DNA of 32,000 bases. Source: Alphaproteobacteria bacterium. Lineage in GTDB: Bacteria; Pseudomonadota; Alphaproteobacteria; Rs-D84. The position numbers were made by a program, and so were the translations under genes. The first letter of the stretch is position 1; each line of letters starts with the position of its first letter. Location: positions 150,001 through 182,000 of the forward strand of contig JAFVFD010000002.1 in assembly GCA_017475605.1 (NCBI GenBank). Direction: 5' to 3'. Positions 3 to 18,453 of the stretch are shown here, one piece after another. The notes beneath the pieces are model-generated. The model saw nothing but the letters and a program-made list of their open reading frames with translations, did no database searches and had not been told where the DNA came from.

Positions 3-3000
3 GAAATTCGTATCAACGAAACCCAATGCGCACGAACCAAGTTCAGAATTAACACAACGTCTGATGCCGACGAGTTTTTAATCTATATCGGTGCCGCGGG
101 AACATTCTATATCGATTGGGATGATGGTTCCGCACCAAGTGTAATTACACATGCGACACCAATTGCGGTACCGTATTCCCATAAATATACAACGGTGCAA
201 TCGCGAACGATTCGCATTGGCGGTTTGGCAACGGAATACCCACCATTGAATATCAACCCCGCCATATCATTTTTCTATAACAACATTTCACACCCCAATT
301 ACATACACAGTGTTTCCGGTTCGTTGGGCGAATTGTTCCCCAGTTATGGCACTGCCGTTGGGCAAACACCACGATTTCGCAACACATTTCTGTATGCGAC
401 TAATATGTACACAATTCCGAACACTTTATTCAGCGGGATAAGCAACGGTTCGGGAACCGTTGCGCCGATATCAAGTATGTTCGAAGGAACGTTTAAACAC
501 TCCGGTCTGACCGAAATACCGACGGGTCTGTTTGCCGAAATTGGGGGCGCACCGGCCAACAGTATGTTTGAAGAAACGTTTTATATGGCGGAAAATCTGG
601 CTGGCGAGATTCCATCGGATTTATTCGCCGGCATTCGCGGCGCACCGGCGGAACAAATGTACGAACGCACATTTGGTAGCACAAAATTAAGTGGCGAATT
701 GCCTGATTATCTGTTTGGCAATTTGAATGGTGCGCCACAATATGCGATGTTCATGCAAACATTTGTCAACGACACGGGGCTAACGGGACAAATTCCGGAT
801 CATTTGTTTGGCGATTTGACTGGTTCAATTGATGTTCGCTGGGCGTTTTATGAAACATTCAAGGGGTGTTCTAAACTAACCGGATATATACCATCAACAT
901 TATTTGGCACCGTCACGGGCAATGCCGGCGATGGAACATTTAGCGACACATTCACTGGAACTGGCTTGTTGGAAAATATATGCCCCAGTAATTTTCATCC
1001 ATATCCCACCTATAACAACCGATTTGCAACATATTGGGATGGCCATATTGCATGCGAAGCCGATGATGCGATTCCTGCTGACCCGGCGCTGGGCACGTGC
1101 ACCGACGCAGAAAATGAAATTGTCGTTGGCGATGGCAAATGTGTTACATCAAAATTCATTGTCGAAACAAAATCTGTAAGTAAAGTGGTATTTTCAATCA
1201 GTGCCGCCGGTATATTCTATTACGATTGTGGCGATGGCAAAGGGGGGCATGTAATCAACCGTACCGATGACACAACACCGCGTACATATTATTGCAACTA
1301 TGACACCACCGGCAAATACACTGTCCGATTTGCCGGCACTGCAACTGGTTATTCAACCGACGAACAGACCGCCGCAATAAGCTTCAATTATAACGAATCA
1401 GATTCGTCAAAGTGCGACATCACATCAATCACAGGCTCGTTGGGTTCCGTATTTCCAAGCATTGATTCCACTGGCACTAATGGCAAGACTCCGCGTTTCA
1501 CTAACACATTCAAGTATTGTGGGCTTGACTCCATTCCCGAAAACCTGTTCAGTGGCGTAAATGGACAACCAGTATCATATATGTTCATGGGAACATTTAG
1601 CGGCGCAAAGGCAACGTCTATTCCAGCCGGATTATTCAGTGGTATAAACGGCACGCCCACACCCCACCTGTTTGAAGGCACATTCAGTGGCATGACACTG
1701 TTAAGTGGCACCATAAGCTCTGATTTATTCGCGGGAATCCGTGGCGAACCAGCACCGTATATGTTCAAATCCACGTTCCAAAATTGTTATGATAATTTTT
1801 ATAAACGGTCTTTTTCAATTGATGACGATTTATTCAGCGGAATATCTGGCGCACCCGCGACAAGCATGTTTGAAAGCACATTTGAACACACAACATTGAA
1901 CAAATTACCACCGCGCTTGTTCCGCCGTATATCCGGCGCACCGGCGACAAAAATGTTCGCACATACGTTTGATGGAACATCGCCATATGAGGGTGGTACA
2001 TGCCTTATGACAACAACACCAACCGAAACAGGCGGACACTTTGTCGCCGACAACTTCTTTGGCGATATACGCGGGGATGCCACTGTTGATATGTTTGCGG
2101 GGACATTTAACAACTGTCATAAAATGACTGGTGCGATTCCGCAGAATCTGTTCGGTGGGCACAACCTGACCGGCGCTGCACAAGAAGGGGTATTTAGCAG
2201 TACTTTTGAGAGCTGTTCTGGGCTGACCGGCGAAATCCCAGATTACCTGTTGGGACAATTGTCCGGTGATGCACAACCATGGGCGTTTAACAGCACATTC
2301 TATGGATGCAGCGGCTTAACTGGTACGGTTCCCGAACATCTGTTCAGTGGTATCACTGGTGATATACATATGTCGTTTACATACACGTTCCGCGGCACTG
2401 GAATAACAGCCATTCACCGAAATTTGTTCAGTGGTCTGAATAAAATAACAACAAATATGTTAAACAATACATTTGAAGATTGTACTGGGTTGACTGAAAT
2501 ACCGGCGAACCTGTTTGCCAGTTTGAATGGAAAATCTGCAACCGATGCCAATGTTACATACCACAATGGGAAACGAAATGAATATTCCATTGGTGATATA
2601 TTCGAAGAGACATTCAAAGGGTGTACGGGTCTCACATCTTTGCCAAACAAATTGTTTGCCGGCATATCTGGGACCGTTGCTGGAATGTTCTGGGGCACAT
2701 TTGCTAATACTGGTATTACGTCAATTCCCGCAGATTTATTCTATGATGCCACGACGGGAACTGGTATATCGGGCGCGACAACAGAAAGAATGTTCAAAGA
2801 AACATTTGCGGGTTGTACGAACCTGGCCAGCATACCGGCCACGCTGTTCGCCGGCATATCGGGTGCGCCTGCAAAATATATGTATTCCGGCACGTTCCAG
2901 GGATGCACCGGACTGACCACATTACCTGCAACAATGCTGTTCGGCAACATATCGGGGGCACCCGCAGAATATATGTTCCAAAACACATTTATGGGATGCA

Positions 3001-6000
3001 CAGGCCTGACATCATTACCGGACGCACCATTATTCGGAATCATCGGCCCACACACCCAAGATGGCACGGGCACAACCCCAACCGCCGCATATATGTTTGC
3101 GAACACATTCCGTGGGTGCACATCACTTGCCGGCTTTATCCCAGCCCAAATGTTTTGGTATTGGAACACAGACAAATTTAGTGCTGCCGATGGTATGTTT
3201 TCTAACGTGTTTACTGATACGAAATTAACTGGCAAGTGTCCAACCGGATACAAGCAATTTGTAACAAATTTTGAAAAGCACTGGGGTTGGACCAGTGCCG
3301 GCGTGTACCCCCAGACATATCGTGTCGCATGCGAACGTGATTCTTCGTGTGATTTGGGCTATGTGTGGAATGGGTCAGAATGCGTAGAATCCACAAACGG
3401 CACCCCGAAAACATGCACCGCCGGAGCCGAAGATGAAATAAAAATAAATGACACCCAATGTGTTAAAAATAGTTTTTATATAACAACAAGCCCAACCAGT
3501 TCGTTTGATTTCAATATCAGTGCCGCTGGTATATTCTATGTCGATTGGGGTGACGGCAACGTTCAGACCATTAATCGCGAAAACAACGTTACACCAGCCG
3601 ACATATCGCATACATACGCCAGCGAACAGGAACGCGTGATAAAATTTGGTGGTATTGCAAACGGATATAACAGTGTCTATTCCACAGCTGCGATATCTTT
3701 TAATGCCATTAACAATTCTGCATATGACAAGATAACCGGAATTGGTGGTTCGTTGGGCGCAATATTCCCAGCGGTTGGCCCAGGCAGCACACACATACCA
3801 TCATTTTATGGAACATTCAGTGGATGCAAAAACATCGAAAGTGTTATTCCATACGACTTGTTCGCAGGCAGTTTGAACTCATCGCCACGATCGGGTATGT
3901 TTACCGGTACATTTTATAACTGCAAGAAACTTGTTGGGTTTATACCACAAAATATGTTTGGTAACATCAGCACCATACCGTCAAATGCAGATATATTTGA
4001 AAACACATTCGGGAATTGCGACAATCTTGCAACCGAAACCACTGGCTGTGGCGCAGATGGATACGCACAATATATCAGTGGATTCGAATCGCAATGGAGT
4101 AATCACATTATGTGCGGCAGCACCTACAGCAGTGGCACATGGAATGGATATATATCGGCATCCCCGATAAATTGTTCAGCATCTGAACACAAATATTTCA
4201 ATGGATTCTTCAATAAATGTATGTGTGATGTTGGATATTATGAATACATACCGAATCGTGGAACATCAAACGAAGGTACCCCAGAGTGTGTTCCATATGA
4301 TTCATATGGAATGGCATTATGTACCAAAGAAAAACAATATGTGTGTTACAACATAAATAGTCTTGGGAACGTAAGCTTGCTGTCAAATTCAGATTATGAT
4401 TATACGCGGCTTGTTGGACATCAAATGGCGGCGATGAAAAATAATGGTACCCAAGTTGGCCGGTGTATCGCATATGTTGGCACTGGTTCCGACAAGCAAC
4501 TTGTTGATGCTGGATATGACGCGTACGATTGGAACAAAAATAATTACGGACGGACAAAATATTGTGGCAATTCTAATGACTATTTGTTCAAGATTAAATT
4601 CCAGGACCAAAACGGCGCCCCAATCAGTGTTCATATCAACGGATTGTTTGATGAGCCGGTTGATCACATTATCATTAATCCAAACATTGATTATTCATCC
4701 GTCATACCAGGCTATACACATCGTTGGCGTTACCCGAACGAAGATGTAAATGATTTGTTACGCGTGATAAAGGCCGATCCGGCAAACGCGACACTGTTCA
4801 GCAATTACATCATGGAATCCCGTATCAAATCCAATGGTAACACCAATGGCGAACAAGGGTACAACACTGGCGAATTGTATTTCCCAGACAATGTTCGTGC
4901 CGAACCTGCGTTTGCCAGCGACGATGGATATTATCCAACAGAATACTATTTGACATTTAATTCAATAACATGTGCTGAAAATCAGTTCGCCACAAATGGA
5001 AGCTGCGTTGATTCTAAATTCAGTGTCATCACCACAAATAACACAAACAGTTTGATATTCAGTTTGGGCGCCCAAGGAACATTCTTTGTTGATTGTGGCG
5101 ACGGTGGCACATTGACGCAAGCCGCCAATTCGCATGGCACAATTTCCGGCAAGCAGATTACTCGCAGTCTTACCTCTGAAACAACATATACATGCACATG
5201 GTCGTCCGCGGGCGAGCATACGATACGGTTTGGCGGCGAAGCAACTGGATATGGGGATAATAGTACAATATCATTTTATCAGCAATCTAACGGCACCCAA
5301 GATAAAATCAAATCTATCAGTGGGTCATTGGGGGCAATATTCCCAGTGGTTGGTGGTGTGGTACCTAAATTTAGCTACACATTTTATAGCACAAGGATAA
5401 CATCGATACCAGCCAACTTGTTCAGTGGCATTGACACGTCATCAGCAACAAATACATCTGATATGTTTAGTTATACTTTCAACAATACAAACATAACATC
5501 AATTCCATCTGACTTATTCAGCACAATTAATACATCTTCAGCAACAAATACGGACAGTATGTTTTTGGGCACTTTTGGATATACAAACATAACAGAAATA
5601 CCAGCCAACTTGTTCAGCACAATTGACACATCATCTGCGACCAATACATCTCATATGTTTAATTCTACTTTCAACAATACAAACATAACATCAATTCCAA
5701 CTGGGTTGTTCGGAACAATCAATACATCTTCAGCAATACAACTGTACCAAATGTTTTTTTCAACGTTCCAAAGTACAAAAATAACAGAAATACCCGTTGG
5801 ATTATTCGACACAATTAATACATCATCTGTAACAGACCCCGAAGATAATGCACGCACTATGTTTGCTAATACATTCTATGGCACACCAATAACAAAGATA
5901 CCAGCTGGATTATTCCAAAATATTACCGTTGCAGGCAACTACATGTTCTCTGACACATTTGCCCGTTGCAGCAACCTATCTGGATATATACCGTATAGTG

Positions 6001-6167
6001 CATTCAAGGGCCTTATTGACGCTGATTCACCAATCGCAGATAAAATGTGGAAGGGCACATTTGATTCTACACAGTTGATTAAAACAGTATGTCCATATAA
6101 CACAACACCAGTTTCAACCCAATATGAAACAGAATGGGGCGGTTACGTGGTGTGCGAACCGAATTAA
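3..6167 (+). CDS. Giant modular repeat protein, 5'-partial (2,054 codons inside the window). It consists of reiterated super-modules: Cys loop, PKD-like domain, GSLG motif, LRR-like repeat array, Cys cap.
   Basis: Frame 3 is open from nt 3, with no stop before the GTG at 195 that the ORF track used as a start, so the true start lies left of the window. It is a single ORF ending at TAA 6165-6167. The motif 'AAG(I/T)FY(I/V/Y)D(W/C)(G/D)DG' recurs at nt 78-125, 1190-1237 and 3510-3557, with a variant 'GAQGTFFVDCGDG' at 5060-5105. Each copy is followed by 'GGxATGY', 'AISF', 'GSLGxxFP' and many 'IPxxLFxGIxGxPxxxMFxxTF' units. Confidence 0.85.
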   Translation, partial: EIRINETQCARTKFRINTTSDADEFLIYIGAAGTFYIDWDDGSAPSVITHATPIAVPYSHKYTTVQSRTIRIGGLATEYPPLNINPAISFFYNNISHPNYIHSVSGSLGELFPSYGTAVGQTPRFRNTFLYATNMYTIPNTLFSGISNGSGTVAPISSMFEGTFKHSGLTEIPTGLFAEIGGAPANSMFEETFYMAENLAGEIPSDLFAGIRGAPAEQMYERTFGSTKLSGELPDYLFGNLNGAPQYAMFMQTFVNDTGLTGQIPDHLFGDLTGSIDVRWAFYETFKGCSKLTGYIPSTLFGTVTGNAGDGTFSDTFTGTGLLENICPSNFHPYPTYNNRFATYWDGHIACEADDAIPADPALGTCTDAENEIVVGDGKCVTSKFIVETKSVSKVVFSISAAGIFYYDCGDGKGGHVINRTDDTTPRTYYCNYDTTGKYTVRFAGTATGYSTDEQTAAISFNYNESDSSKCDITSITGSLGSVFPSIDSTGTNGKTPRFTNTFKYCGLDSIPENLFSGVNGQPVSYMFMGTFSGAKATSIPAGLFSGINGTPTPHLFEGTFSGMTLLSGTISSDLFAGIRGEPAPYMFKSTFQNCYDNFYKRSFSIDDDLFSGISGAPATSMFESTFEHTTLNKLPPRLFRRISGAPATKMFAHTFDGTSPYEGGTCLMTTTPTETGGHFVADNFFGDIRGDATVDMFAGTFNNCHKMTGAIPQNLFGGHNLTGAAQEGVFSSTFESCSGLTGEIPDYLLGQLSGDAQPWAFNSTFYGCSGLTGTVPEHLFSGITGDIHMSFTYTFRGTGITAIHRNLFSGLNKITTNMLNNTFEDCTGLTEIPANLFASLNGKSATDANVTYHNGKRNEYSIGDIFEETFKGCTGLTSLPNKLFAGISGTVAGMFWGTFANTGITSIPADLFYDATTGTGISGATTERMFKETFAGCTNLASIPATLFAGISGAPAKYMYSGTFQGCTGLTTLPATMLFGNISGAPAEYMFQNTFMGCTGLTSLPDAPLFGIIGPHTQDGTGTTPTAAYMFANTFRGCTSLAGFIPAQMFWYWNTDKFSAADGMFSNVFTDTKLTGKCPTGYKQFVTNFEKHWGWTSAGVYPQTYRVACERDSSCDLGYVWNGSECVESTNGTPKTCTAGAEDEIKINDTQCVKNSFYITTSPTSSFDFNISAAGIFYVDWGDGNVQTINRENNVTPADISHTYASEQERVIKFGGIANGYNSVYSTAAISFNAINNSAYDKITGIGGSLGAIFPAVGPGSTHIPSFYGTFSGCKNIESVIPYDLFAGSLNSSPRSGMFTGTFYNCKKLVGFIPQNMFGNISTIPSNADIFENTFGNCDNLATETTGCGADGYAQYISGFESQWSNHIMCGSTYSSGTWNGYISASPINCSASEHKYFNGFFNKCMCDVGYYEYIPNRGTSNEGTPECVPYDSYGMALCTKEKQYVCYNINSLGNVSLLSNSDYDYTRLVGHQMAAMKNNGTQVGRCIAYVGTGSDKQLVDAGYDAYDWNKNNYGRTKYCGNSNDYLFKIKFQDQNGAPISVHINGLFDEPVDHIIINPNIDYSSVIPGYTHRWRYPNEDVNDLLRVIKADPANATLFSNYIMESRIKSNGNTNGEQGYNTGELYFPDNVRAEPAFASDDGYYPTEYYLTFNSITCAENQFATNGSCVDSKFSVITTNNTNSLIFSLGAQGTFFVDCGDGGTLTQAANSHGTISGKQITRSLTSETTYTCTWSSAGEHTIRFGGEATGYGDNSTISFYQQSNGTQDKIKSISGSLGAIFPVVGGVVPKFSYTFYSTRITSIPANLFSGIDTSSATNTSDMFSYTFNNTNITSIPSDLFSTINTSSATNTDSMFLGTFGYTNITEIPANLFSTIDTSSATNTSHMFNSTFNNTNITSIPTGLFGTINTSSAIQLYQMFFSTFQSTKITEIPVGLFDTINTSSVTDPEDNARTMFANTFYGTPITKIPAGLFQNITVAGNYMFSDTFARCSNLSGYIPYSAFKGLIDADSPIADKMWKGTFDSTQLIKTVCPYNTTPVSTQYETEWGGYVVCEPN
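5397..5885 (+). repeat. In-frame tandem repeat of 96 nt (32 aa). There are four regular units, followed by a longer, more diverged unit (5781-5885), inside the last super-module of the giant gene.
   Basis: Units start at 5397, 5493, 5589, 5685 and 5781, each beginning 'ataaca(tc/ga)a(a)t(a/t)cc'. The peptide units are 'ITSIPANLFSGIDTSSATNTSDMFSYTFNNTN', 'ITSIPSDLFSTINTSSATNTDSMFLGTFGYTN', 'ITEIPANLFSTIDTSSATNTSHMFNSTFNNTN' and 'ITSIPTGLFGTINTSSAIQLYQMFFSTFQSTK'. Long identical nucleotide runs are visible between units. Confidence 0.85.
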
Positions 6168-6182
6168 CAGGAGATAAAAATT

Positions 6183-6737
6183 ATGAAACACACAATGATT
6201 GTTATGATGGGGGGCCAGGGCGCAGGCAAGGGCAGTTTGGCAACCATAATGAAATCTGAACACGAATATAAACATATTGAAAGTGGTGCGCTTTTTCGCG
6301 CATTGCCGGCGGATTCTGAAATCGCAAAAATCATCGCGCGTGGCGAATTGGTACCTGATTCCGAATTGTTTAAATTAATGCAATCACAAATTACGAACGA
6401 TTCGGACATTATTTTGGACGGATTCCCCCGCACATTACCCCAGGCACAATGGTTGGTCGCCGAATATGCCGACAAATTCGATATTCATGTTCTGTACCTT
6501 AACCTGTCCGAAGAAATTATGATGTTCCGCATTAATAAACGCATTAAAGAAGGGGGCGGTCGTGCCGATGATGCTGACACTGCCGCTGTGCGTCGTCGCC
6601 TGGATACATTCTGGAAAATAACAGTTCCGGCAATTGAATGGTTGCGCACCGCCGATGGTATTAAATTCAGTGATATTGACGCATCACAAACACTGGATGG
6701 TAACATGGAACAGATACGCGCCGCACTTGCCCGGTAA
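6183..6737 (+). CDS. adk: Adenylate kinase (short, lid-less form)
   Basis: It has a P-loop 'GGQGAGKGS', 'ILDGFPRTLPQAQ' and 'GRADD...RL', is 184 aa long, and has an AGGAGA Shine-Dalgarno sequence just upstream of the ATG. Confidence 0.8.
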   Translation: MKHTMIVMMGGQGAGKGSLATIMKSEHEYKHIESGALFRALPADSEIAKIIARGELVPDSELFKLMQSQITNDSDIILDGFPRTLPQAQWLVAEYADKFDIHVLYLNLSEEIMMFRINKRIKEGGGRADDADTAAVRRRLDTFWKITVPAIEWLRTADGIKFSDIDASQTLDGNMEQIRAALAR

Positions 6738-6787: not shown

Positions 6788-7676
6788 ATCTTTTCCTGCG
6801 TTGAATAATACCCAATGCCGCATATCCAATCAGCAGGGTAAATATCATTATCAAAATAACTATCGCGGTCCAATCATATTCCGCCCCAGGCAATTTCATA
6901 TTCATACCGTAATATCCAACCACAATGGTTGGGGCAATCAAAATAATGTTCCACATAGTCAAGCGATTAATGTAAGTGTTCGAATCCATATTAATAACAC
7001 TTTCAAATGTTTCTTTGATTGCCTTTAACATTTTACTGTACGATGTAACAACCTCGGTCGCCTGGGCCAATTCAATGCGGGCATCTTCGGCTAATTCTTC
7101 GGCTTCATCTGTTTTAACAAAGCCACGCAACTTGTCCAATTTATCCATCACCGCAATGTTGCCCTTAATTCCAGCCATATAGAGTGTATAACTGTTTTCC
7201 ACATCCAGCAACGACAGCAATTCCGGTTTGCGTATCCGCTGGGACAGGGCATTTTTCGCACGCATAACGCGCTTGTTAAGTTCTTTCAGGCTGCGCAAAT
7301 AAGATTCCGCAATATAGTAAATTATGTTCAAAATGAACTCTTCGCGGGTGGCTTTTTCATCGCGTTTGATTTTATCCAACAAATCACAGCGTTTACGGCA
7401 TACAGTAATAACATTATCACGCGAATAAATAATAGACAATGGTTCGGTATGCCATGTCGTTTCTATTTCGCGGTTCACGATTGGGAATCGCACAATTATA
7501 ACCTTGTAATCATCTTCAACCTCGAAACGTGGCTGTTCGTCGGGGTCCAAAATGTCGGATATTGTATCTTCATCAATTTTATATTCGTTCTGTAATCTTT
7601 CGAAATCTTCGTGATCGGGATTACCAACATTTACCCAAGAGAATGTTTTTAATTTTTCAGTGTCAAACATCGCCAC
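6786..7676 (-). CDS. corA: CorA-family divalent-cation (Mg2+/Co2+) transporter
   Basis: It has the C-terminal 'YGMNMKLP' GMN signature between two hydrophobic helices, and an acidic soluble N-terminal domain. Length is 296 aa. Confidence 0.85.
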   Translation of the reverse strand: MAMFDTEKLKTFSWVNVGNPDHEDFERLQNEYKIDEDTISDILDPDEQPRFEVEDDYKVIIVRFPIVNREIETTWHTEPLSIIYSRDNVITVCRKRCDLLDKIKRDEKATREEFILNIIYYIAESYLRSLKELNKRVMRAKNALSQRIRKPELLSLLDVENSYTLYMAGIKGNIAVMDKLDKLRGFVKTDEAEELAEDARIELAQATEVVTSYSKMLKAIKETFESVINMDSNTYINRLTMWNIILIAPTIVVGYYGMNMKLPGAEYDWTAIVILIMIFTLLIGYAALGIIQRRKR

Positions 7677-7853
7677 TCTCCTTTGGTTCTGAACAATTTT
7701 TAACGCCGTCGATTTTAACCGACAATTTTAGAAAAAGCAAATGTTTTAGGTAAAAAAAATCAAACAAACCACACTTTATTAAAACACTTAATTATTTACT
7801 TGCTTAATAATTATTTTTCTGAAATAATGTGATTACAGACAAAGGAGTAACAC

Positions 7854-8141
7854 ATGAAAAAAGCATTAATCGCCGGGCTCTGCGTGGCATTTTTAACAAC
7901 TGGCGCGATGGCAAAACCATCAAACCACCACACACCGCATCACAACGGGGGACACACAACAGTTCAGGTAATTAACACATCTTCGCACCATGGCGGACGT
8001 TCGCATTACGCATCGCATCATCGTCCGTCGCATCATGTCGCGTACAGCGCGCCACGTCGCCATCACCACAGCCACGATAATTTGAATCTGCTGGGCGATG
8101 CGCTGATTGCGTTTGCGATATTCGCGGCAGCCGCACAATAA
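7854..8141 (+). CDS. Histidine-rich exported protein (95 aa) with a hydrophobic C-terminal tail
   Basis: AAGGAG lies 7 nt upstream of the ATG. The signal peptide is 'MKKALIAGLCVAFLTTGAMA'. The mature part contains 16 His in about 55 residues (HH, HHH runs). A terminator follows directly. Confidence 0.75.
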   Translation: MKKALIAGLCVAFLTTGAMAKPSNHHTPHHNGGHTTVQVINTSSHHGGRSHYASHHRPSHHVAYSAPRRHHHSHDNLNLLGDALIAFAIFAAAAQ

Positions 8142-8160
8142 ACAATTAAACAATAAAAAC

Positions 8161-8188
8161 ACCGCCGGAAACGGCGGTTTAATTTTTT
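8161..8188 (+). terminator. Intrinsic terminator after the His-rich gene
   Basis: The hairpin is 'accgccg-gaaa-cggcggt', followed by 'ttaatttttt'. Confidence 0.7.
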
Positions 8189-8264
8189 GGTCGGGGTGAC
8201 AGGAATCGAACCTGCGACCCCTTGCACCCCATGCAAGTACTCTACCAGGCTGAGCTACACCCCG
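8188..8264 (-). tRNA. tRNA-Pro (anticodon GGG)
   Basis: The reverse complement folds as a cloverleaf: acceptor CGGGGTG/CACCCCG, D arm GCTC...GAGT, anticodon arm CTTGC-ATGGGGT-GCAAG (U33, GGG, G37) and T arm GCAGG-TTCGATT-CCTGT. CCA is encoded. Length is 77 nt. Confidence 0.9.
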
Positions 8265-8361
8265 ACATGCGTTCTATACTAGCCCACCCACACGCAAATT
8301 ACAAATATTTTTTAAGGTATTCATACATATTGTTGGGGCGGGGCGGGTAATGTAAAATATT

Positions 8362-8375
8362 TTTGTCCGGACAAA
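8362..8375. promoter_or_regulatory. Perfect 14-bp palindrome, a candidate operator upstream of the micro-ORF
   Basis: 'tttgtccggacaaa' is its own reverse complement. It lies 39 nt upstream of the ATG at 8414, in an AT-rich region that looks like a promoter. Confidence 0.4.
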
Positions 8376-8413
8376 TAAAATAACAACCAATATTTAAACA
8401 AGGGAGAACTATT

Positions 8414-8527
8414 ATGTCTAAAACAGAACATGGAAAAAACTGTAAGTGTAAAGAATGTACCAGCATCGTCGCAAATCATGAACACGACAGAAAACACCCA
8501 GGTAAACCAGAAAAATGCGACAAGTAA
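8414..8527 (+). CDS. Cys/His-rich micro-protein (37 aa), absent from the ORF track
   Basis: The ATG is preceded by 'aagggagaactatt' (GGGAGA Shine-Dalgarno). The peptide is 'MSKTEHGKNCKCKECTSIVANHEHDRKHPGKPEKCDK', ending at TAA 8525-8527. A clean intrinsic terminator sits 10 nt downstream. Confidence 0.6.
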   Translation: MSKTEHGKNCKCKECTSIVANHEHDRKHPGKPEKCDK

Positions 8528-8536
8528 ATTAACCAA

Positions 8537-8561
8537 CACCGGCAAACAAGCCGGTGTTTTT
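8537..8561 (+). terminator. Intrinsic terminator after the micro-ORF
   Basis: The hairpin is 'caccggc-aaacaa-gccggtg', followed by 'ttttt'. Confidence 0.75.
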
Positions 8562-8654
8562 ATTATGTTTTTTTCATGCTTAATTTTATACTTGCACGAA
8601 TCGGAAAAAAGTTACTAGTATTCGCATAGATGTAAAACCAAGGAAGGACATACT

Positions 8655-9038
8655 ATGATTATTGGTATTGGAATAGATTTGGTGGAAAGTGGCCGTTTTC
8701 TTGATTGGTCTGCTTTCAAAAAGCAACGCATATTTACAAAAAAAGAACTTGAATATGCCGACAACGACAACGCAAATGCAGAAAAGCATTTGGCAAATTT
8801 CTGGGCCGCACGCGAAGCATGTTTAAAGGCATTGGGCACCGGCTTTGGTGATGATATCGCTTTTTCTGATGTATCGGTTGTTCATAACGATTCGGGATGT
8901 CCAGAATTATTAATCGCCGGCGGGGCACGCGCCGCATTAAAAGAATTGGCGGGCACATCCGCGCGCGTTCATCTGTCTATCACAGACCAGGGCGATTATT
9001 CCGCCGCAATGGTTGTAATCGAAGGCGATGAAAAATAA
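8655..9038 (+). CDS. acpS: Holo-[acyl-carrier-protein] synthase (4'-phosphopantetheinyl transferase)
   Basis: The N-terminus 'MIIGIGIDLVE', 'FTKKELEY', 'AAREACLKALGTG' and 'HLSITDQGDYSAAMVVIE' are typical of AcpS. Length is 127 aa. AAGGAAGGA is the Shine-Dalgarno sequence. Confidence 0.85.
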   Translation: MIIGIGIDLVESGRFLDWSAFKKQRIFTKKELEYADNDNANAEKHLANFWAAREACLKALGTGFGDDIAFSDVSVVHNDSGCPELLIAGGARAALKELAGTSARVHLSITDQGDYSAAMVVIEGDEK

Positions 9039-9138: not shown

Positions 9139-11277
9139 TTAACCAGATGTGTACATATATGTTTCACCCGCACAACACCCATTTGCATCCGGTGCCGCAC
9201 CGTCCGAACAAGTTTCCACTTCACCCGATACAACATCAGATTCCAGAACCTCGGACGCGACTATTTCAGGCGCACCACCCAGTGTTGCCACCGGCATCGG
9301 CTGGACATCTGTATCCGGCGAATAATTCGATTCGACAACGGTTTCCGAATCATATTCAGGGGCCGCAACAAACATCTTTTCGTTTTGCGAAACACTGTAT
9401 CCCGGTTTGCGTGCCAATATTTCTTCTTCGGTTGGAATCGGTTTCTTTTCAGGTTCATAATTCGCGACCGTACGCAAATCAACAAACGGACTTTCCACCG
9501 AAATATTATCCGGTTCCGGTGTTGCGACAACCGCAACTGGTTCTGGTTCCGGTTCCGCCGCAATCGGTTCCGATTCGATTTCAGACACCGCAACCGCAAC
9601 AGGTTCAGGTTCGACAACCGGTGCTGGCTCTTCCTGGGCTATTGGTTCCACAACCGGTTCTGGTTCAGATACCGTCGCAGGTTCCGCCTGGTCCACAGTC
9701 GGATTAACAAACGGACTTGGGATATTTGTTTCGTTATTCTTCTTGGTATCAGTTGCCGGTTCCGCTGTTTCCGATACTGTCGTTGTTGTGGTCGCCGCCA
9801 AATCTGGCAACACCGCACCATTCTTTGTTTGATACAGCCACAATGTAAATATCGACAGCGCAATCAACAGTATCAACATAATGTAATATATAAACGTCGG
9901 CTTCTTGGCATAATGTACATCCGTTTGCGTAATTGTGTTTCCGGTTATAGGCGACACCGGACGCACAGGCGCAATCGGTTCAACCGGCGCAACGGGCTCT
10001 ATCGTTTCTATTTCGGCAACCGGTTCCGGCATTTGTGCTGCGGTCCCAACCGGTTCATTATTAACATCCGCCGGGGCAGGTTCCACAGCCGGTTCCACAA
10101 CAAACGTATTTTCCAATTCGGCCGGTTGTTCCACAGGTGTCAAACTGTCCAACATTGGTACAGATGTTTCTTCTGTATCGTTTTCAGACACAGGCGCACT
10201 TGATGTTGGTGGGGTAAATAACAGCGGTGCAGGTGCCACAGGTTCCGAATAAGCCGGCGATGGTTCACTACGTGGCGCACTGTTTACCGGCGCATCAAAA
10301 TCAATAGGCTTGAACGCAATATTATCGTCCAGTATTTCAGGGTCGCGATCAAACAATGGTTTTACGGCATCGTTATATGGCATTTCTTCGTCCGCCGCCG
10401 AATCGTCTTCTTCATATGTGTCTTCTATATAATCATCGGCATAATTTGAATCATTTTCTTCGTCATCGGTGTAATCGTCCGTTTCTTCTTCATCTTCCAC
10501 AACAGGCTGAGTAACGACAGGGCGATGTGTTGTCGCGTGCGATGTTTTCGTTGTCGTGCGACGTGGCGCATCAAAATCCGTATGGCGCGCCAAAATTGCG
10601 CGCGCAATTTCTGCATCATCTTCGGCAACGACAAGGCGACGCTGTGCACTGTCCAAACGTTTTTTTGCGCGTGCCAACTTTTCATTGGTTGCATCTATTT
10701 GAGCCTCGGTCTTTAAGATTTTAGCCGCAGATGATTTAGTCGGTTCGCGCCCAATTCCACGTCTTTGTTCAGACAATTTTGAACGCAAGGTTTTAATACG
10801 ATCGCGCAATTCTGAAATGGTTTCGTTGGTACGTTCAATCGTTTCGCGGGCCTTGGCCGCGGCATCTTCTGCGGCATCAAGGCGTTCGCGTGCCGCGCGA
10901 CGCACCGACATAATGCGAAAACGTTTCAGGTTTTCAAGTGGCTCTTTCAAACTTTCTTCGGCATCATATGCATCAAAAAGTTCGGAATACACATCCAGTC
11001 CACTATATTCAATATCCAGTTTTTGATATTTATTATCCCGCTTTGGACGCACAGTTTCTAAATCAATACCGTAATCATTGGACAAAATATCGTCCCATTT
11101 ACGATCGTCAAAAGAATCAATAACCAGCAGGACATTTGGTTTGTCTGCATTAATCGTCTCGTCAAGCACAAAAATCAATTCGTGCGCACCATCATAATAC
11201 GCCCGAAAATCGTTGCCTTTGATATTATATTCGACAACTTTTATTTTTTTTGAACGGTTTTCTCTCTCGCGTGGCAT
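9139..11277 (-). CDS. Bitopic membrane protein with a coiled-coil N-terminal domain, an acidic tract, one TM helix and a Pro/Glu/Val-rich C-terminal region. Function unknown.
   Basis: It is a long ORF. The ATG at 11277 has an AGGA 7 nt upstream, whereas the track start at 11298 is a TTG. The Arg/Ala/Glu-rich segment 'RRAARERLDAAEDAAAKARETIERTNETISELRDRIKTLRSKL' is predicted coiled coil. The TM helix is 'PTFIYYIMLILLIALSIFTLWLY'. There are 'EPEPVVEP/EPEPEPVAV' repeats, and the C-terminal end reads 'CSDGAAPDANGCC'. It starts 24 nt after the gcrA stop. Confidence 0.75.
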   Translation of the reverse strand: MPRERENRSKKIKVVEYNIKGNDFRAYYDGAHELIFVLDETINADKPNVLLVIDSFDDRKWDDILSNDYGIDLETVRPKRDNKYQKLDIEYSGLDVYSELFDAYDAEESLKEPLENLKRFRIMSVRRAARERLDAAEDAAAKARETIERTNETISELRDRIKTLRSKLSEQRRGIGREPTKSSAAKILKTEAQIDATNEKLARAKKRLDSAQRRLVVAEDDAEIARAILARHTDFDAPRRTTTKTSHATTHRPVVTQPVVEDEEETDDYTDDEENDSNYADDYIEDTYEEDDSAADEEMPYNDAVKPLFDRDPEILDDNIAFKPIDFDAPVNSAPRSEPSPAYSEPVAPAPLLFTPPTSSAPVSENDTEETSVPMLDSLTPVEQPAELENTFVVEPAVEPAPADVNNEPVGTAAQMPEPVAEIETIEPVAPVEPIAPVRPVSPITGNTITQTDVHYAKKPTFIYYIMLILLIALSIFTLWLYQTKNGAVLPDLAATTTTTVSETAEPATDTKKNNETNIPSPFVNPTVDQAEPATVSEPEPVVEPIAQEEPAPVVEPEPVAVAVSEIESEPIAAEPEPEPVAVVATPEPDNISVESPFVDLRTVANYEPEKKPIPTEEEILARKPGYSVSQNEKMFVAAPEYDSETVVESNYSPDTDVQPMPVATLGGAPEIVASEVLESDVVSGEVETCSDGAAPDANGCCAGETYMYTSG

Positions 11278-11301
11278 GTGTGTATCCTGGGGTTTCAAGT
11301 A

Positions 11302-11937
11302 TTATTTCTTTTTCGGTGGTGTAAACTGATACGCCAATCTGCAATGTTCATAGCAATATGGTTTGCCGGTAAACACCTGTTTTCCACAGAAGTGGAAATT
11401 TTCAGAATCTGGATCACCAATCGGCCAACGGCACTGATTCGGTTTAAGATTCGCCAATTCCAACGAATGTTGAATTATGCGTTGATGCATCGCCAATGTT
11501 TTTGACGAACTTTTAGTCGATTTTGTCGCTGTTTCCTTGGGTGCTTCTGTTTTTACCTTTGCCGCCGGCTTTTTAGATTCCACCTTGGTCGGTGCCTTTT
11601 TCTTTTGTGCCGGGGCGGTCGTTGCCTTCTTTTCAGATTTGGTTTTTACGGTCGCAACAGGCTTCTTGGCCGGTGCCTTTTTTGCCACCGTTTTAGTTGT
11701 TTTTGTTGCGGTTGTCTTCTTGATAGTTACCGATGGTGCAACATCCTTCTTGGCAGGCTTGGCCGTTTTGGCATTTGTTGATGCGCCCGCCTTGGCATTC
11801 CAGCCCATACGATTTAATTTACCAACAACCGCATTCTTGGACAGACCCAAACGTTTACCAATTTCGGACGTGGACAAACCCTTGCCCATAAGGGCTTTCA
11901 GTTTTTTTAATGTTGCGTTATCCCAACCTTTACTCAT
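11302..11937 (-). CDS. gcrA: GcrA cell-cycle transcriptional regulator
   Basis: The N-terminus 'W..ATLKKLKALMGKGLSTSEIGKRLGLSKNAVVGKLNRMGW' and the C-terminus 'QCRWPIGDPDSENFHFCGKQVFTGKPYCYEHCRLAYQ' match the two conserved GcrA domains. They are separated by a Lys/Ala/Thr-rich linker. Confidence 0.9.
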   Translation of the reverse strand: MSKGWDNATLKKLKALMGKGLSTSEIGKRLGLSKNAVVGKLNRMGWNAKAGASTNAKTAKPAKKDVAPSVTIKKTTATKTTKTVAKKAPAKKPVATVKTKSEKKATTAPAQKKKAPTKVESKKPAAKVKTEAPKETATKSTKSSSKTLAMHQRIIQHSLELANLKPNQCRWPIGDPDSENFHFCGKQVFTGKPYCYEHCRLAYQFTPPKKK

Positions 11938-12509: not shown

Positions 12510-13412
12510 ATGAGAATAAAACACAGCATATTTTTCACACTATGCGTTGGTACATTTGTATCGGCGACAAACGCGGCACCGATTGCGCAAAACCCTACAT
12601 CTGTGCAGCCGATATCGCAATACGGCCTTATACAGAATGTACAAAATTATTCGTCTAATCCGTTTTGGAATCCCAATGGCCCATATAATCAGCGTATGCC
12701 CCAACCGGTATATGTCCAGGGTGCCGATTTAAATACCGCCGATTGCCAACGTACCGTTGGTACACTTGTCGCATCATATTGTGTTGATAATAATAACTGT
12801 GTCGGCATGCGGATAAGTGATATTCGCCCGGCGATGATGTTACAACTGGCGCGGTTGCCGGGACATAATTATGCGACGTCTTGTGCGGGGTTCATTGATT
12901 CTGAATTTGAAAGTTATGTTTCAAAATATTCAAATGCGGGGCCGTCCAATTCTTATGTTGCTTTTCCAAATGCGACCACACCTAATCCGGCAATTTATGA
13001 AACAGAATATGAAATACAAAACCCATATCAAATAAAAAACCGTACTTGGAACGGCGAGGAATGGGAAAAAGAAAAAAAGGAACGCATTCGCGAACTTGAT
13101 GAATTACAGGCACAGAACGGCGCAAACGATATTAAATTAGCGCGCGCTGATTTTCCAACCACTATTGACGATTTGTCATTTGATGAACGTATGGAATTGC
13201 AGGCTGCTGGATACGAACCATGGAAAGATGCCACACCATATCAGCAGATAAAGATTGAACGCGAAGAAGATTATTATAATCGCCGCAACGGTGGCACAAC
13301 CACGGTTTCAGATGCATCAACACCAAACGCACCAACAAAACCCGGCCAATCAACTGTTGTTTATCCAAATGTTCCGGGATATGACGGCGCAAAACTTGTT
13401 TATCTAAGATAA
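12510..13412 (+). CDS. Exported protein of unknown function (300 aa)
   Basis: The signal peptide is 'MRIKHSIFFTLCVGTFVSATNA'. There is a Cys-containing N-terminal half and a charged 'WEKEKKERIRELDELQ' segment. The gene lies 22 nt after the A24 peptidase gene. Confidence 0.75.
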   Translation: MRIKHSIFFTLCVGTFVSATNAAPIAQNPTSVQPISQYGLIQNVQNYSSNPFWNPNGPYNQRMPQPVYVQGADLNTADCQRTVGTLVASYCVDNNNCVGMRISDIRPAMMLQLARLPGHNYATSCAGFIDSEFESYVSKYSNAGPSNSYVAFPNATTPNPAIYETEYEIQNPYQIKNRTWNGEEWEKEKKERIRELDELQAQNGANDIKLARADFPTTIDDLSFDERMELQAAGYEPWKDATPYQQIKIEREEDYYNRRNGGTTTVSDASTPNAPTKPGQSTVVYPNVPGYDGAKLVYLR

Positions 13413-13416
13413 CGTT

Positions 13417-14415
13417 ATGAACAGATTTTGTCTTGCTTTTTTATTCGCATTTTTAGGCATTGTTTCAAATGCGACCGCCGCGAATCTGCAATGTTTGGCA
13501 GACATTGGCGCGAACGATGCGACATTTATAACCCCGATGTATAACGATGTGTTGGCGGGACAAGCACCGACCCAGGAAAACATTGATGCAAATAAACCAA
13601 AAATGTTCGGTCTGGTTGCGGCAAATGTTATATTACAATGCCTTAACGGCCCGGACAGAAATGATTTCCAAACCGTCGCAGACAGCAAAGAATTCATTAT
13701 TCCGTTCACTTATAAAGATAAAGTTAAATATAAGTTGCAGGTTGACACGGCAAAATTGTTTGACTATGTCAATTTGCCAACCGGTTTTTTAGTTGTCAAC
13801 AAACGCACATATATTCCAGGCGATGTTATAAAAAAATCTGATATGCCAACCGATTATTTCTTTAGCAGCGATTGTTCAGATCACTATGTTCGCCTTAATT
13901 TGTCAGATGACGCTGGGGTGAACGTGGCGGGTCAATCGGCATTTGCCGCATATGGTGGCAAAGAAAACGAATATTTCCTGGATTTTCCGGTTGAAAAAAA
14001 TTGCCGTGCATTCCCCGGTTTGGTATTGGGGGACTTTGGCGGATGGGGTGCCCCTGAAAAAATCATTGCATACACAAATTATCTGGATGCCCAGGGGGCC
14101 GCTGAATCTTTTGCCAAGGCATTACAAAACACATCATGCGCGAATCAAAACCTGGCCGTATATTTGGTATCACTGGAATCAATGCCGGCACAAAAGGATG
14201 GCACAACGGGCATAGTTATCGGCGCAGGTGTTGGTGGTGGGGCGGCGGCTGCAACATTAACCGCTGTTTTGGCATCTAATCCGGTTGGGTGGGTTGTTGG
14301 TGCCGTTGGTTTGGCGGTTGGCGGAATTATTGCCGGGGTATCTTCGTTGTTTTACAAAGACCTGGCCGATATTCAACAGGTGGTCGTTCTTAAAGGGCCA
14401 TATATAGTAAAATAG
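13417..14415 (+). CDS. Exported protein with a C-terminal glycine-zipper membrane hairpin (332 aa). Function unknown.
   Basis: The signal peptide is 'MNRFCLAFLFAFLGIVSNATA'. The C-terminus reads 'GIVIGAGVGGGAAAATLTAVLASNPVGWVVGAVGLAVGGIIAGV'. The start lies 4 nt after the previous stop. Confidence 0.75.
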   Translation: MNRFCLAFLFAFLGIVSNATAANLQCLADIGANDATFITPMYNDVLAGQAPTQENIDANKPKMFGLVAANVILQCLNGPDRNDFQTVADSKEFIIPFTYKDKVKYKLQVDTAKLFDYVNLPTGFLVVNKRTYIPGDVIKKSDMPTDYFFSSDCSDHYVRLNLSDDAGVNVAGQSAFAAYGGKENEYFLDFPVEKNCRAFPGLVLGDFGGWGAPEKIIAYTNYLDAQGAAESFAKALQNTSCANQNLAVYLVSLESMPAQKDGTTGIVIGAGVGGGAAAATLTAVLASNPVGWVVGAVGLAVGGIIAGVSSLFYKDLADIQQVVVLKGPYIVK

Positions 14416-14416
14416 T

Positions 14417-18119: not shown

Positions 18120-18196
18120 TGGTGGATGTGGGCGGACTCGAACCGCCGACCCCTACGATGTGAACGTAGTGCTCTAACCAACTGAGCCACACATCC
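18120..18196 (-). tRNA. tRNA-Val (anticodon CAC)
   Basis: The reverse complement is GGATGTG-TG-GCTC-AGTTGGTTA-GAGC-A-CTACG-TTCACAT-CGTAG-GGGTC-GGCGG-TTCGAGT-CCGCC-CACATCC-A-CCA. Length is 77 nt. Confidence 0.9.
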
Positions 18197-18234
18197 TAAA
18201 TCGGTGGTCTGCCACACAAAGCCTTGACAAAGTG

Positions 18235-18321
18235 TGGTGGGGATAGTGGGACTTGAACCCACACGGTCGCAATGACCAAAGGATTTTAAGTCCTCAGCGT
18301 CTACCATTCCGCCATATCCCC
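18235..18321 (-). tRNA. tRNA-Leu (anticodon UAA)
   Basis: The acceptor is GGGGATA/TATCCCC, the anticodon arm is GAGGA-CTTAAAA-TCCTT, there is a long variable arm, and the T arm is GTGGG-TTCAAGT-CCCAC. CCA is encoded. Length is 87 nt. Confidence 0.9.
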
Positions 18322-18334
18322 GGACTTAACTTTT

Positions 18335-18355
18335 AAAACGCGCGCTTTGCGCGCG
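18335..18355 (-). terminator. GC hairpin plus U-tract inside the tRNA cluster. It could be a terminator or a processing signal.
   Basis: The minus strand reads 'cgcgcgc-aaa-gcgcgcg-tttt'. It lies between tRNA-Ala and tRNA-Leu(UAA). Confidence 0.45.
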
Positions 18356-18361
18356 GAAACT

Positions 18362-18437
18362 TGGTGGAGCTGATGGGACTCAAACCCACGACCTCTACGA
18401 TGCGAACGTAGCGCTCTATCAACTGAGCTACAACCCC
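18362..18437 (-). tRNA. tRNA-Ala (anticodon CGC)
   Basis: The acceptor GGGGTTG/CAGCTCC contains the G3:U70 Ala identity pair. The anticodon arm is CTACG-TTCGCAT-CGTAG and the T arm is GTGGG-TTTGAGT-CCCAT. CCA is encoded. Length is 76 nt. Confidence 0.88.
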
Positions 18438-18453
18438 AAAACTTTCATTCATA

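Follow-up and report, generated by a model that had tools for sequence, protein, structure and literature searches.

Reiterated modules of BspA/DUF285-related leucine-rich repeats in a giant, putatively adhesive protein of a gut alphaproteobacterium

Leucine-rich repeat (LRR) proteins of the BspA/DUF285 type are surface proteins with tandem units, which are about 23-26 aa long in the Pfam LRR_5 and DUF285 families. Named examples are Tannerella forsythia BspA and Mycoplasma bovis MbovP0145. BspA binds fibronectin and fibrinogen, MbovP0145 binds beta-actin, and DUF285 is distantly related to LRRs (PMC8707762). We describe here a gene in which whole modules are reiterated; it comes from a gut alphaproteobacterium with a small genome, a relative of Candidatus Enterousia. 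The sequence comparisons set out below show these modules to be a diverged branch of the BspA/DUF285 surface-protein kind, and the protein is most likely a multivalent adhesin and not a new protein type.

The window, i.e., the whole stretch of 32,000 nucleotides that was analyzed, opens inside this gene. In the window ORF list the frame is open from nt 3 to a stop codon at 6165-6167, and open-frame analysis assigns to 3..6167 on the + strand the C-terminal 2,054 codons and the stop of one ORF. The gene is ~8.5 kb long and its full product, P0001, has 2,823 aa. The first 769 aa lie to the left of the window, as does the true N-terminus, which a preliminary description of this DNA had correctly placed outside; the recorded start may be truncated. 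That description had counted four super-modules. Four do lie in the window, but leftward extension revealed a fifth block upstream, so P0001 has five modules in total and the count of four is an effect of the window edge. Every block has the same order: a Cys-closed hairpin, a beta-sandwich head with a WGDG or CGDG motif, a GSLG..FP junction, an array of units, and a two-Cys cap. The recurrence of this ordered block was borne out by segment-versus-whole BLASTP, in which the blocks match one another at E=3e-36 to 1e-21 with 35-43% identity, a similarity far beyond chance. GSLG recurs at window-protein aa 106, 478, 1249 and 1774 and the W/C-G/D-DG motif at aa 39, 409, 1182 and 1698.

All features lie on the + strand, and the Cys loops are found where they had been reported (at the window start and from 1098, 3414 and 4971). 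In module 1, the window starts within the hairpin, and the beta-sandwich head (3..341; IDWDDG...SHKY, W/H type) terminates in GSLGELFP. It is followed by an LRR-like array of about 6 units of 30-34 aa (369..980; IPxxLFxGIxGAPAxxMFxxTF..LTG) and by a two-Cys cap (981..1058; CPSNFHPYPTYNNRFATYWDGHIACE). The hairpin (1098-1142) and head of module 2 together span 1098..1457, are of the C/C type (YDCGDG...YYCNY) and terminate in GSLGSVFP. The array of this module has about 18 units, some of which carry insertions (1491..3236), and its cap reads CPTGYKQFVTNFEKHWGW...YRVACE (3237..3335). A short Cys-rich spacer, CDLGYVWNGSEC, separates modules 2 and 3 (3336..3413) and has no Pfam match; Pfam Ephrin_rec_like (PF07699) is recorded for some homologues as whole proteins. 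Module 3 has a hairpin and head of the W/H type (3414..3770; VDWGDG...SHTY) that terminate in GSLGAIFP, an array of only 2-3 units (3798..4046) and a cap (4047..4115; CGADGYAQYISGFESQWSNHIMC). The hairpin and head of module 4 are of the C/C type with an inserted loop (4971..5345; VDCGDGGTLTQ...YTCTW) and terminate in GSLGAIFP. Its array has 7 units of a DUF285-like subtype (5364..6089; IPxxLFSxIDTSSATNTSxMFxxTFNNTNITS), with a 96-nt tandem periodicity in the DNA at 5391-5870, and its cap (6090..6158; CPYNTTPVSTQYETEWGGYVVCE) stands two codons before the stop codon. Unit numbers per array are thus very unequal, being about 6, 18, 2 and 7 in modules 1-4.

The protein is made of reiterated super-modules whose parts have the order that had been claimed. 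A stretch of 285 aa between blocks 3 and 4 (4116..4970), Cys-rich in its N-terminal part, belongs to no block. A Pfam search of window:4122-4970 yielded no family at E<=10, and no relatives of the insert were found in the PDB, among database proteins or among family members. Its stretch YLFKIKF...PGYTHRWRY gives an impression, and only that, of the Flg_new (Listeria-Bacteroides) repeat PF09479, for which there was no match at E<=10. LRR domains are the targeting parts of some effectors, and the insert, present in P0001 alone and placed between modules, could be the active payload of a secreted effector or toxin carrier whose LRR modules target a cell. We consider this improbable. The insert lacks any Pfam, PDB or database match, polymorphic toxins normally have their toxin at the C-terminus whereas P0001 ends in a module cap, and no immunity-like small ORF follows the gene, with adk starting 16 nt downstream.

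Since the source is a metagenome-type contig and repeat-rich genes misassemble easily, the gene model itself could be unreal. The ORF could be the product of misassembly, a chimera made of paralogues, or a pseudogene in decay, and GC drops from 0.46 to about 0.40 over the last 2 kb. Such an origin is very hard to reconcile with the data. The frame is open throughout its 2,054 codons in the window, predicted structures have very high AlphaFold confidence, and the multi-module layout recurs in homologues, whose many contigs are independent of one another and include a closed chromosome of 958,618 bp. Because the DNA of the blocks has only short, 60-88% identical motifs in common, and the modules are 35-43% identical as protein, there is nothing to collapse or duplicate, and the reiteration did not arise through collapse or expansion of a repeat during assembly. 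These identities are what argues against the artefact that had been named as a threat to the fourfold reiteration.

The preliminary description had set the repeat unit apart from the BspA/LRR_5, Pmp and RHS families. For the latter two this stands: neither the window protein nor full P0001 has a Pfam/NCBIfam match to Pmp GGA(I/L/V)-FxxN or RHS/YD repeats, nor to an autotransporter C-terminal beta-barrel or RTX nonapeptides. The separation from BspA/LRR_5, and with it the novelty of the unit, did not survive profile searches. No Pfam/NCBIfam model matches the window protein, which together with its separate modules also gave no match to LRR_5 (PF13306) or DUF285 (PF03382) at E<=1; in Pfam only module 2 left a trace, to LRR_5 at E=1.6. 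The family assignment is therefore built on transitive and profile-profile evidence. P0013 exceeds the DUF285 cut-off (34.1 bits versus 25; E=2.5e-8) at residues 557-677, within its second module, which is 46% identical to window module 4 (BLASTP). Among 24 modules, four match LRR_5 and three match DUF285. With hhalign, the module profile aligns to the array of a Klebsiella phage Tail_P2_I fusion (99.2%, E=2.4e-19) and to that of an E. coli phage WPEC6 tail protein (99.2%, E=1.5e-19), and the family array aligns to that of Synechococcus phage S-SKS1 (89%, E=2e-6). The Klebsiella phage homologue is over the Pfam cut-offs for LRR_5 (40.7 bits), DUF285 (30.4) and LRR_8 (28.1), and the WPEC6 and S-SKS1 arrays match DUF285 only below cut-off. 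Thus the unit is a long-period derivative of the BspA/DUF285-type LRR and not a new repeat class.

The cores ...F..C..LT.IP... and ...DTS..TN...MF... are common to the window units and the BspA/DUF285 type, and both kinds are proteins of host-associated microbes that are exported, presumably so in the case of the window protein. They differ in period. Window units have 28-36 aa (with modes of 29 and 31 aa in about 2,975 units family-wide), whereas the DUF285-type phage array used for comparison has units of 24 aa, and the surplus is made up of about 5 residues (xxLFx) that follow IP and about 4 that precede MF. In addition, a PKD-like head with its GSLG junction precedes each window array and a two-Cys cap follows it, and the module as a whole is reiterated. 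Positional entropy reaches 3.4-3.8 bits flanking MF and TF, versus about 0-1.4 bits at core positions.

In the AlphaFold model of module 4 the module is one rigid body (pLDDT 96.6, pTM 0.92). This confidence, together with single-module homologues of about 400-690 aa that bear N-terminal signal peptides, bears out the idea that a super-module is a complete unit, and the stand-alone homologues are those for which a survey had been proposed. Searched against the PDB, the module profile matched consensus, VLR and repebody LRR chains (4psj 2e-9, 5a5c 3e-8). The top PDB matches of the module 4 model in Foldseek were LGR5, LGR4 and designed LRR (E=4e-4 to 6e-3), with TM values of only 0.14-0.23. The best whole-module structural match in BFVD was the S-SKS1 protein M4QPG4 (E=8.7e-9, TM 0.48/0.52, 369 columns). 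In the classical extracellular LRR proteins (VLRs, LGR5, LRRTM, internalin-type repebodies), L..LP.G.F..L is the consensus with which LT.IP..LF..I aligns, and in both groups a solenoid, putative in the window protein, would be closed by caps that contain Cys. However, the caps are unrelated in sequence, and the two groups also differ in how long the unit is and in its second half (MF..TF..C in the window unit).

The head of ~115-120 aa carries the PKD-like signature WGDG...H.Y...G.Y. The full form, WxxGDG...HxY...GxYxV, is complete in module 3 (VDWGDG...SHTY), and the other heads are variants, with CGDG and a change of H to C in modules 2 and 4 and WDDG in module 1. The WGDG-type motif that had been assigned to each block is therefore found in modules 2-4 only. 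On the four window heads, Pfam PKD (PF00801/PF18911) gave no match at E<=0.01, a threshold at which PKD matched 8 and PKD_4 6 of 43 family heads. The homologue P0019 scores 33 bits for PKD versus a cut-off of 23.5 (6e-8), with its best stretch on the head, and the head profile matched 4xed_A (E=0.0015) and 1wgo_A of SorCS2 (E=0.48) in the PDB, both of which we take to be PKD domains. In contrast, Foldseek of the module 3 head model (pLDDT 93.5) against the PDB returned no PKD in the top 50 (best E=0.068, TM<=0.36). The resemblance to PKD that had been noted is thus real at the level of sequence, and among these top hits the confidently predicted fold matched no solved PKD structure. The signature WGDG...H.Y...G.Y.(I/V) is common to both; the window head has in addition a hairpin at its N-terminus, putatively closed by a disulfide, and a GSLG strand at its C-terminus.

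Hairpins and caps have conserved Cys pairs, and we suggest that the modules are disulfide bonded. At the xGDG/xTY head positions, the W/H and C/C states covary across the family (377 heads W,H; 226 C,C; <10 mixed). A scan for the cap pattern C...[YFW][EDNS]..[WF]...C upheld the two-Cys cap as the close of each block. The full protein has five such caps, of which the window contains four, as against about 0.65 matches expected in shuffled sequence. One extra match lies within the insert.

Judging from its sequence relatives, the module also occurs on phage tail and baseplate proteins. In PHROG, phrog_9915 (annotated unknown function) matches the module 1 array at E=4.2e-12 and module 2 at E=6.4e-41. 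By tblastn, module 2 matches phage tail proteins, with identity of only about 28-32%, and module 4 has no match in phage genomes. A protein of the Klebsiella P2-like phage Kp4861-1 has Tail_P2_I at its start, and its C-terminal part is a head-like segment (FTVDYGDG...YTITV) followed by an array of the window-type unit. In an E. coli phage WPEC6 protein, named 'tail protein' by annotation, the C-terminal part is the array alone. The C-terminal ...L(S/D)DY..(I/L)P..(W/Y)... of both resembles the second cap type of the family. M4QPG4 ('PKD domain-containing protein'), which was equated with SWZG_00142 by ORF length (353 aa), has a WGDG...HTY...GDYTITI head, matching the family profile at 98.1% (hhalign), and then DUF285-type units. 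Its unit is 24 aa long, lacking the IPxxLF insertion, and it has neither the Cys hairpin nor the two-Cys cap. In phages the module is single and terminates a virion protein, following Tail_P2_I or RCC1-like and Big_2 domains, whereas the window gene is chromosomal, has five modules, and has no phage genes among the window's called genes. Since the same head and array, or the array alone, are borne by phage tail proteins, a binding role is suggested.

The family numbers 1,780 clusters (50% identity) at E<=1e-30 and is concentrated in MAGs of Candidatus Enterousia and related uncultured gut Alphaproteobacteria. Some homologues consist of one module preceded by a Sec signal peptide, others have chains of up to 24 matched stretches, and others are the phage tail and baseplate fusions. 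Other expanded families, BspA-like or of variable lipoproteins, have been proposed to form a variable surface coat. Likewise, the expansion and module mosaicism seen here could mainly diversify the cell-exposed surface, and the family would then provide variation in antigens or phage receptors and not adhesion. The number of clusters would fit this, as would the several loci per MAG among the 78 loci listed (at least four each in JAFSDI, JAZLDK and JAAVBP), the range of 2 to about 18 units per array within one protein, and the fact that sibling modules are never mutual nearest relatives (ranks 28-230 of 236). Nevertheless, we find a coat the less likely function. No invertible promoter, homopolymer tract or retroelement is among the window's called genes, with the promoter region lying outside the window, and binding is indicated both by the hypervariable strand-flanking LRR positions and by the use of the module on phage tails. 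One protein could serve both roles.

We therefore return to adhesion. More probably than not, in our judgment, P0001 is a binding protein of the beads-on-a-string form, exported, multivalent and stabilised by disulfides, and the ORF encodes its distal two-thirds. Many giant homologues begin with typical signal peptides, and P0001 can be aligned at its N-terminus to P0009, which has there a hydrophobic signal or anchor and then a Thr/Arg-rich linker. Pfam/NCBIfam gave no outer-membrane translocation or anchoring device in P0001 (autotransporter barrel, RTX/T1SS signal or sorting motif). P0001 would be exported, displayed on the surface and adhesive. Each bead would be an autonomous module of four parts, in which the Cys-closed beta-hairpin and beta-sandwich head form the N-terminal cap, the GSLG..FP junction comes next, and a solenoid of 2 to about 18 LRR-like units is closed by the two-Cys C-terminal cap. 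The variable positions adjoining the conserved MF/TF pairs may be the ligand-binding face. Enterousia is placed in the order Rs-D84, with genomes of 0.75-1.0 Mb that lack respiration and standard transporters, and a dependence on partner cells has been proposed (PMC12306168). The five modules, of different and anciently diverged types, could provide several binding specificities or high avidity in one protein, and partner-cell surfaces, host mucus or particles are the targets that we propose.

The giant protein is a chain of capped, probably solenoid modules. Its forward-strand frame is open from nt 3 of the window until the stop at 6165-6167, giving 2,054 codons within the window. A database search retrieved the complete product, a protein of 2,823 aa (P0001) on a 231-kb contig, in which residue 770 corresponds to residue 1 of the window protein; its N-terminal part consists of a hydrophobic segment followed by a Ser/Thr/Gln/Arg-rich linker of ~130 aa. 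The reiterated super-modules and their named landmarks, as proposed in the preliminary description, are present. Whole-protein self-BLAST gave the identity match only, and the internal repeats emerged when overlapping 200-aa segments were compared with the full sequence by BLASTP. This aligned residues 101-294 of the window protein with 473-664 (E=3e-36), 1-200 with 1145-1343 (E=4e-33) and 9-193 with 1668-1858 (E=6e-27), at 35-43% identity between blocks. Cys-bounded loops start at nt 1098, 3414 and 4971 as noted earlier, the GSLG motif is found in each block (aa 106, 478, 1249 and 1774), and the cap pattern ends every block, with one additional match within the insert between modules 3 and 4 (0.65 matches are expected in shuffled sequence). 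The WGDG motif holds in the looser form W/C-G/D-DG (aa 39, 409, 1182 and 1698), but module 1 reads WDDG. The arrays are very unequal in size, with ~6, 18, 2 and 7 units in modules 1, 2, 3 and 4. The count of four modules was too low, as P0001 has a fifth at aa about 320-655, upstream of the window. The blocks follow the order described, and the 285 aa encoded by nt 4116-4970, between modules 3 and 4, lie outside any block.

The module is an autonomous unit. In the AlphaFold2 model of module 4 (nt 4974-6164), the whole module forms a single rigid body (pLDDT 96.6, pTM 0.92), and the head of module 3 alone reaches a pLDDT of 93.5. An HMM built from the five heads found one to seven heads in 76 of 79 first-round homologues, and a profile of 24 aligned modules (A1) retrieved 148 further proteins. 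Many of these, at 400-690 aa, have just one head behind an unmistakable N-terminal signal peptide; they are the stand-alone homologues that the preliminary description had suggested looking for. In several of them, the mature protein starts at the Cys hairpin itself. Many single-module members (P0117, P0130-P0165 and others) carry a conserved N-terminal domain of ~90 aa (AEMVNVEYIHQYLNARWGI...ANMEYLL), and many have a second cap type ending in ...LSDY..IP..WK, an ending also seen on phage tail proteins. In other family members, the C-terminus is formed by a different domain (...ICY.PL..G.GG...N....Y H...).

The modules of one protein are old and divergent. Assembly artefact and recent tandem duplication were rejected because of the 35-43% protein identity and the DNA that the blocks share, which amounts only to motifs of 34-44 nt at 60-88% identity. 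Together with the confident model of module 4, these values also make it very unlikely that the gene is an artefact or a pseudogene. The sole tandem DNA periodicity in the giant ORF is a 96-nt (32-aa) repeat in module 4 (5391-5870, 61-78% identity). Recent tandem duplication is further contradicted by comparison with other proteins: each of the five modules is 44-56% identical to modules from other genomes versus 32-41% to its siblings, which rank 28th to 230th among 236 modules. The closest relatives of module 4 are likewise modules in other organisms' proteins (54-56% identity). Because the modules are nearer to those of other genomes than to their siblings, the giant protein is a mosaic of old module types.

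The preliminary description did not recognise the repeat as a classical LRR or as BspA/LRR_5; four independent lines of evidence place the units in the LRR world, in the BspA/DUF285 branch. The window protein and most of the family members tested are without a Pfam or NCBIfam match, and searches of four profile libraries yielded no named function for the module. The first line is that, in the PDB, the module profile matches LRR chains of the consensus, VLR and LRRTM types (4psj, 2e-9; 5a5c, 3e-8) through a shared LT.IP..LF..I motif; top PDB matches of the module 4 model in Foldseek were LGR5, LGR4 and a designed LRR, all weak (E=4e-4 to 6e-3, TM <=0.23). Second, Pfam DUF285 matches residues 557-677 of the homologue P0013 at 34.1 bits (cut-off 25). 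This stretch lies within the second module of P0013; in BLASTP against window module 4, that module has 46% identity and the first module of P0013 has 49%. Among the 24 modules, four match LRR_5 and three match DUF285. Third, the best whole-module structural match anywhere is M4QPG4 of Synechococcus phage S-SKS1 (E=8.7e-9, TM 0.48/0.52). In the 353-aa ORF of this phage, equated with M4QPG4 by length, a WGDG...HTY...GDYTITI head precedes 24-aa units (CTNLTSFPLIDTSSVTNMSNAWSG) with a weak DUF285 match, and over 84 columns hhalign aligns its array with that of the family (89% probability, 49% identity). By this alignment, the family unit is a DUF285-type unit with ~5 residues (xxLFx) added after IP and ~4 before MF. 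The fourth line is the hhalign match to phage tail proteins, described below. Across ~2,975 units of the family, lengths have modes of 29 and 31 aa and the consensus is IPxnLFaGIsGAPAxxMFxxTFxGCSGLTGs. Thus, the repeat is a long-period variant of a described kind, neither a new class nor categorically new. The variant module combines it with a fixed PKD-like head, a GSLG junction and Cys caps, is reiterated into giant proteins and has expanded in this lineage.

The likeness of the head to a PKD domain is borne out for the sequence signature; a structure search of the PDB did not confirm it for the fold. Pfam PKD matches the homologue P0019 at 6e-8 with its best stretch on a head, and at E<=0.01 PKD and PKD_4 match 8 and 6 of 43 family heads, respectively; none of the window's four heads matched Pfam PKD at that threshold. 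Two PDB chains, both of them PKD domains, are matched by the head profile: 4xed_A, across WGDG...HTY...G.Y (E=0.0015), and 1wgo_A (E=0.48). By contrast, no PKD structure is among the top 50 Foldseek matches of the head model in the PDB, which are assorted jelly-roll or sandwich domains (best E=0.068, TM <=0.36). The head is therefore PKD-like in motif, with a confident predicted fold for which there is no solved match. At the xGDG and xTY positions of 644 heads, W pairs with H in 377 and C with C in 226, while mixed pairs number fewer than 10. Modules 1 and 3 of the window protein (heads at nt 3-341 and 3414-3770) are of the W/H type and modules 2 and 4 (1098-1457 and 4971-5345) of the C/C type. 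This clear covariation speaks for a genuine contact that is conserved in three dimensions, and the pattern implies that a disulfide may stand in for the Trp-His contact.

Relatives of the module also form the C-terminal parts of phage tail and baseplate proteins. In tblastn searches of phage genomes, the module 2 array matched 51 phage records and was alone in giving matches; module 4 gave none. Profile scans of IMG/VR viral contigs found no relatives. In the Klebsiella P2-like phage Kp4861-1, a 1,008-aa ORF combines Tail_P2_I (3.7e-38), Big_2, a head-like segment (FTVDYGDG...YTITV) and a long array that scores above the Pfam cut-offs for LRR_5, DUF285 and LRR_8. This protein aligns with A1 at 99.2% probability (hhalign, E=2.4e-19) over 239 columns, head included. 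A protein of E. coli phage WPEC6 annotated as 'tail protein' ends in the same array type (99.2%, E=1.5e-19), and phrog_9915, a PHROG of unknown function, matches module 2 at E=6.4e-41. Receptor binding is a common task of C-terminal domains in phage tail and baseplate proteins, and the link to them hints independently at a recognition role for the module. The S-SKS1 gene SWZG_00142 (locus L081, 3784-4845, reverse strand), whose product, judged by its 353-aa length, appears to be the best structural match M4QPG4, sits between prohead protease and capsid assembly genes; because of these neighbours, its product may be head-associated and not a tail protein.

The insert (nt 4116-4970) is Cys-rich at its start and has no relatives in Pfam, PDB sequences, an index of 5.8 billion proteins or other family members. 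An impression that it is Flg_new-like was not borne out, as there is no Pfam match. The idea that the giant protein is an effector with this orphan insert as its payload has no positive support, since the insert lacks Pfam, PDB and database relatives. GC over the insert and module 4 (window 4001-6000) is 0.41 and 0.395, against ~0.46 upstream.

Head and module HMMs found no more family members among the other large unannotated ORFs of the window. An adenylate kinase gene (6183-6737, forward strand) starts 16 nt past the stop of the giant gene, and the two may be co-transcribed because this gap is too small for a terminator. In a related MAG (locus L073, JAAVBP010000003.1, compared with window 6900-9023), a family member adjoins corA and acpS on the opposite strand with a tRNA cluster adjacent, an arrangement that suggests a recurrent insertion or rearrangement site. 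The window's own four-tRNA cluster (18120-18540, reverse; Val-CAC, Leu-TAA, Ala-CGC, Leu-CAG) is 92-97% identical to L073 DNA, and a lone tRNA-Pro(GGG) lies at 8188-8264 (reverse). Four co-directional ORFs of 300, 332, 620 and 377 aa (12510-17394, forward) all have signal-peptide-like N-termini. Three of them matched no family, the last, of 377 aa, has weak Glyco_hydro_108 and PG_binding_3 (muramidase-like) matches, and the group may be a secreted cell-wall-active cluster. A 904-aa ORF without a family match (18694-21408, forward) starts with a signal peptide and includes a low-complexity, Thr/Arg-rich stretch; over 53 aa, this stretch is 45% identical (E=1e-4) to the giant protein's N-terminal linker, which it resembles. 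A 386-aa ORF (30461-31621, forward) has a signal peptide, a C-terminal autotransporter beta-domain (Pfam E=7e-7) and a passenger of just ~150 aa. Directly upstream of gcrA (11302-11937, reverse), a 719-aa ORF without a family match (9139-11298, reverse) shows only a faint coiled-coil-type likeness to SMC and Rad50.

Genes for GcrA, LpxA, LpxB, bactofilin, Adk, CorA and AcpS lie in the window, whose corA and acpS DNA is 75-78% identical to loci of a Candidatus Enterousia MAG and one other MAG, both of which carry the family. A scan of one genome per species, with a profile from an alignment of four sequences, confirmed 143 family stretches, nearly all in Candidatus Enterousia or other Alphaproteobacteria/proteobacteria MAGs, from sources including rumen, goat, sheep, yak, buffalo, and human and mouse gut. 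There are several loci per MAG, and one locus is on a closed chromosome of 958,618 bp. An exhaustive profile search of 1.84 billion representatives, clustered at 50% identity, gave 9,929 proteins at E<=1e-3, of which 4,512 remain at E<=1e-10 and 1,780 at E<=1e-30. The longest has 7,626 aa, and up to 24 matched stretches occur in one protein. Their database names are 'hypothetical' and occasionally 'PKD domain-containing' or 'InlB B-repeat-containing'.

We think it most likely that the giant protein is an exported binding protein. The N-terminus of P0001 aligns with that of the homologue P0009, in which a hydrophobic signal or anchor precedes a linker rich in Thr and Arg, and this alignment and the signal peptides on homologues suggest that it would be exported by Sec. 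The many paired cysteines would then form disulfides outside the cytoplasm. For crossing or anchoring in the outer membrane, Pfam and NCBIfam searches found no barrel, RTX or sorting signal in the giant protein. Variability peaks directly on either side of the conserved MF and TF pairs, at 3.4-3.8 bits versus at most about 1.4 in the core, and these positions could serve each solenoid as its recognition face; with five divergent modules, binding might be multivalent or multispecific. Among proteins with related repeats, reported ligands are fibronectin and fibrinogen for BspA and beta-actin for a DUF285 protein of Mycoplasma bovis (PMC8707762). A variable surface coat against immunity or phage is also compatible with the data, in that it fits the family expansion and the module mosaicism, and it may coexist with adhesion.

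Binding to other cells is of interest in this lineage. Enterousia belongs to the order Rs-D84, whose members have genomes of 0.75-1.0 Mb, are fermentative and lack standard transporters, and dependence on, or living off, partner cells has been proposed from their genomes (PMC12306168). As factors that might mediate the interaction, that study mentions only 'hypothetical membrane-bound proteins', and it identifies no machinery for attachment or uptake (PMC12306168). Rs-D84/Enterousia occur widely in the guts of ruminants, humans, mice and birds. A far-reaching version of our proposal, which we think rather improbable as a whole, is that the family is the main cell-to-cell attachment apparatus of these partner-dependent bacteria, that the module shares its origin with the receptor-binding modules of phage tails and baseplates and was possibly exchanged with them, that each module type addresses a different partner or host surface, and that the head is a new fold with only a PKD-like motif. 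The module definition (head, GSLG junction, long-period DUF285-like unit and two cap types) would help to annotate thousands of 'hypothetical proteins', and the modules are small, autonomous, confidently modelled domains that can be expressed for ligand screens. With ~1,800 clusters and several copies per small genome, the family is an obvious candidate for the partner-cell interface.
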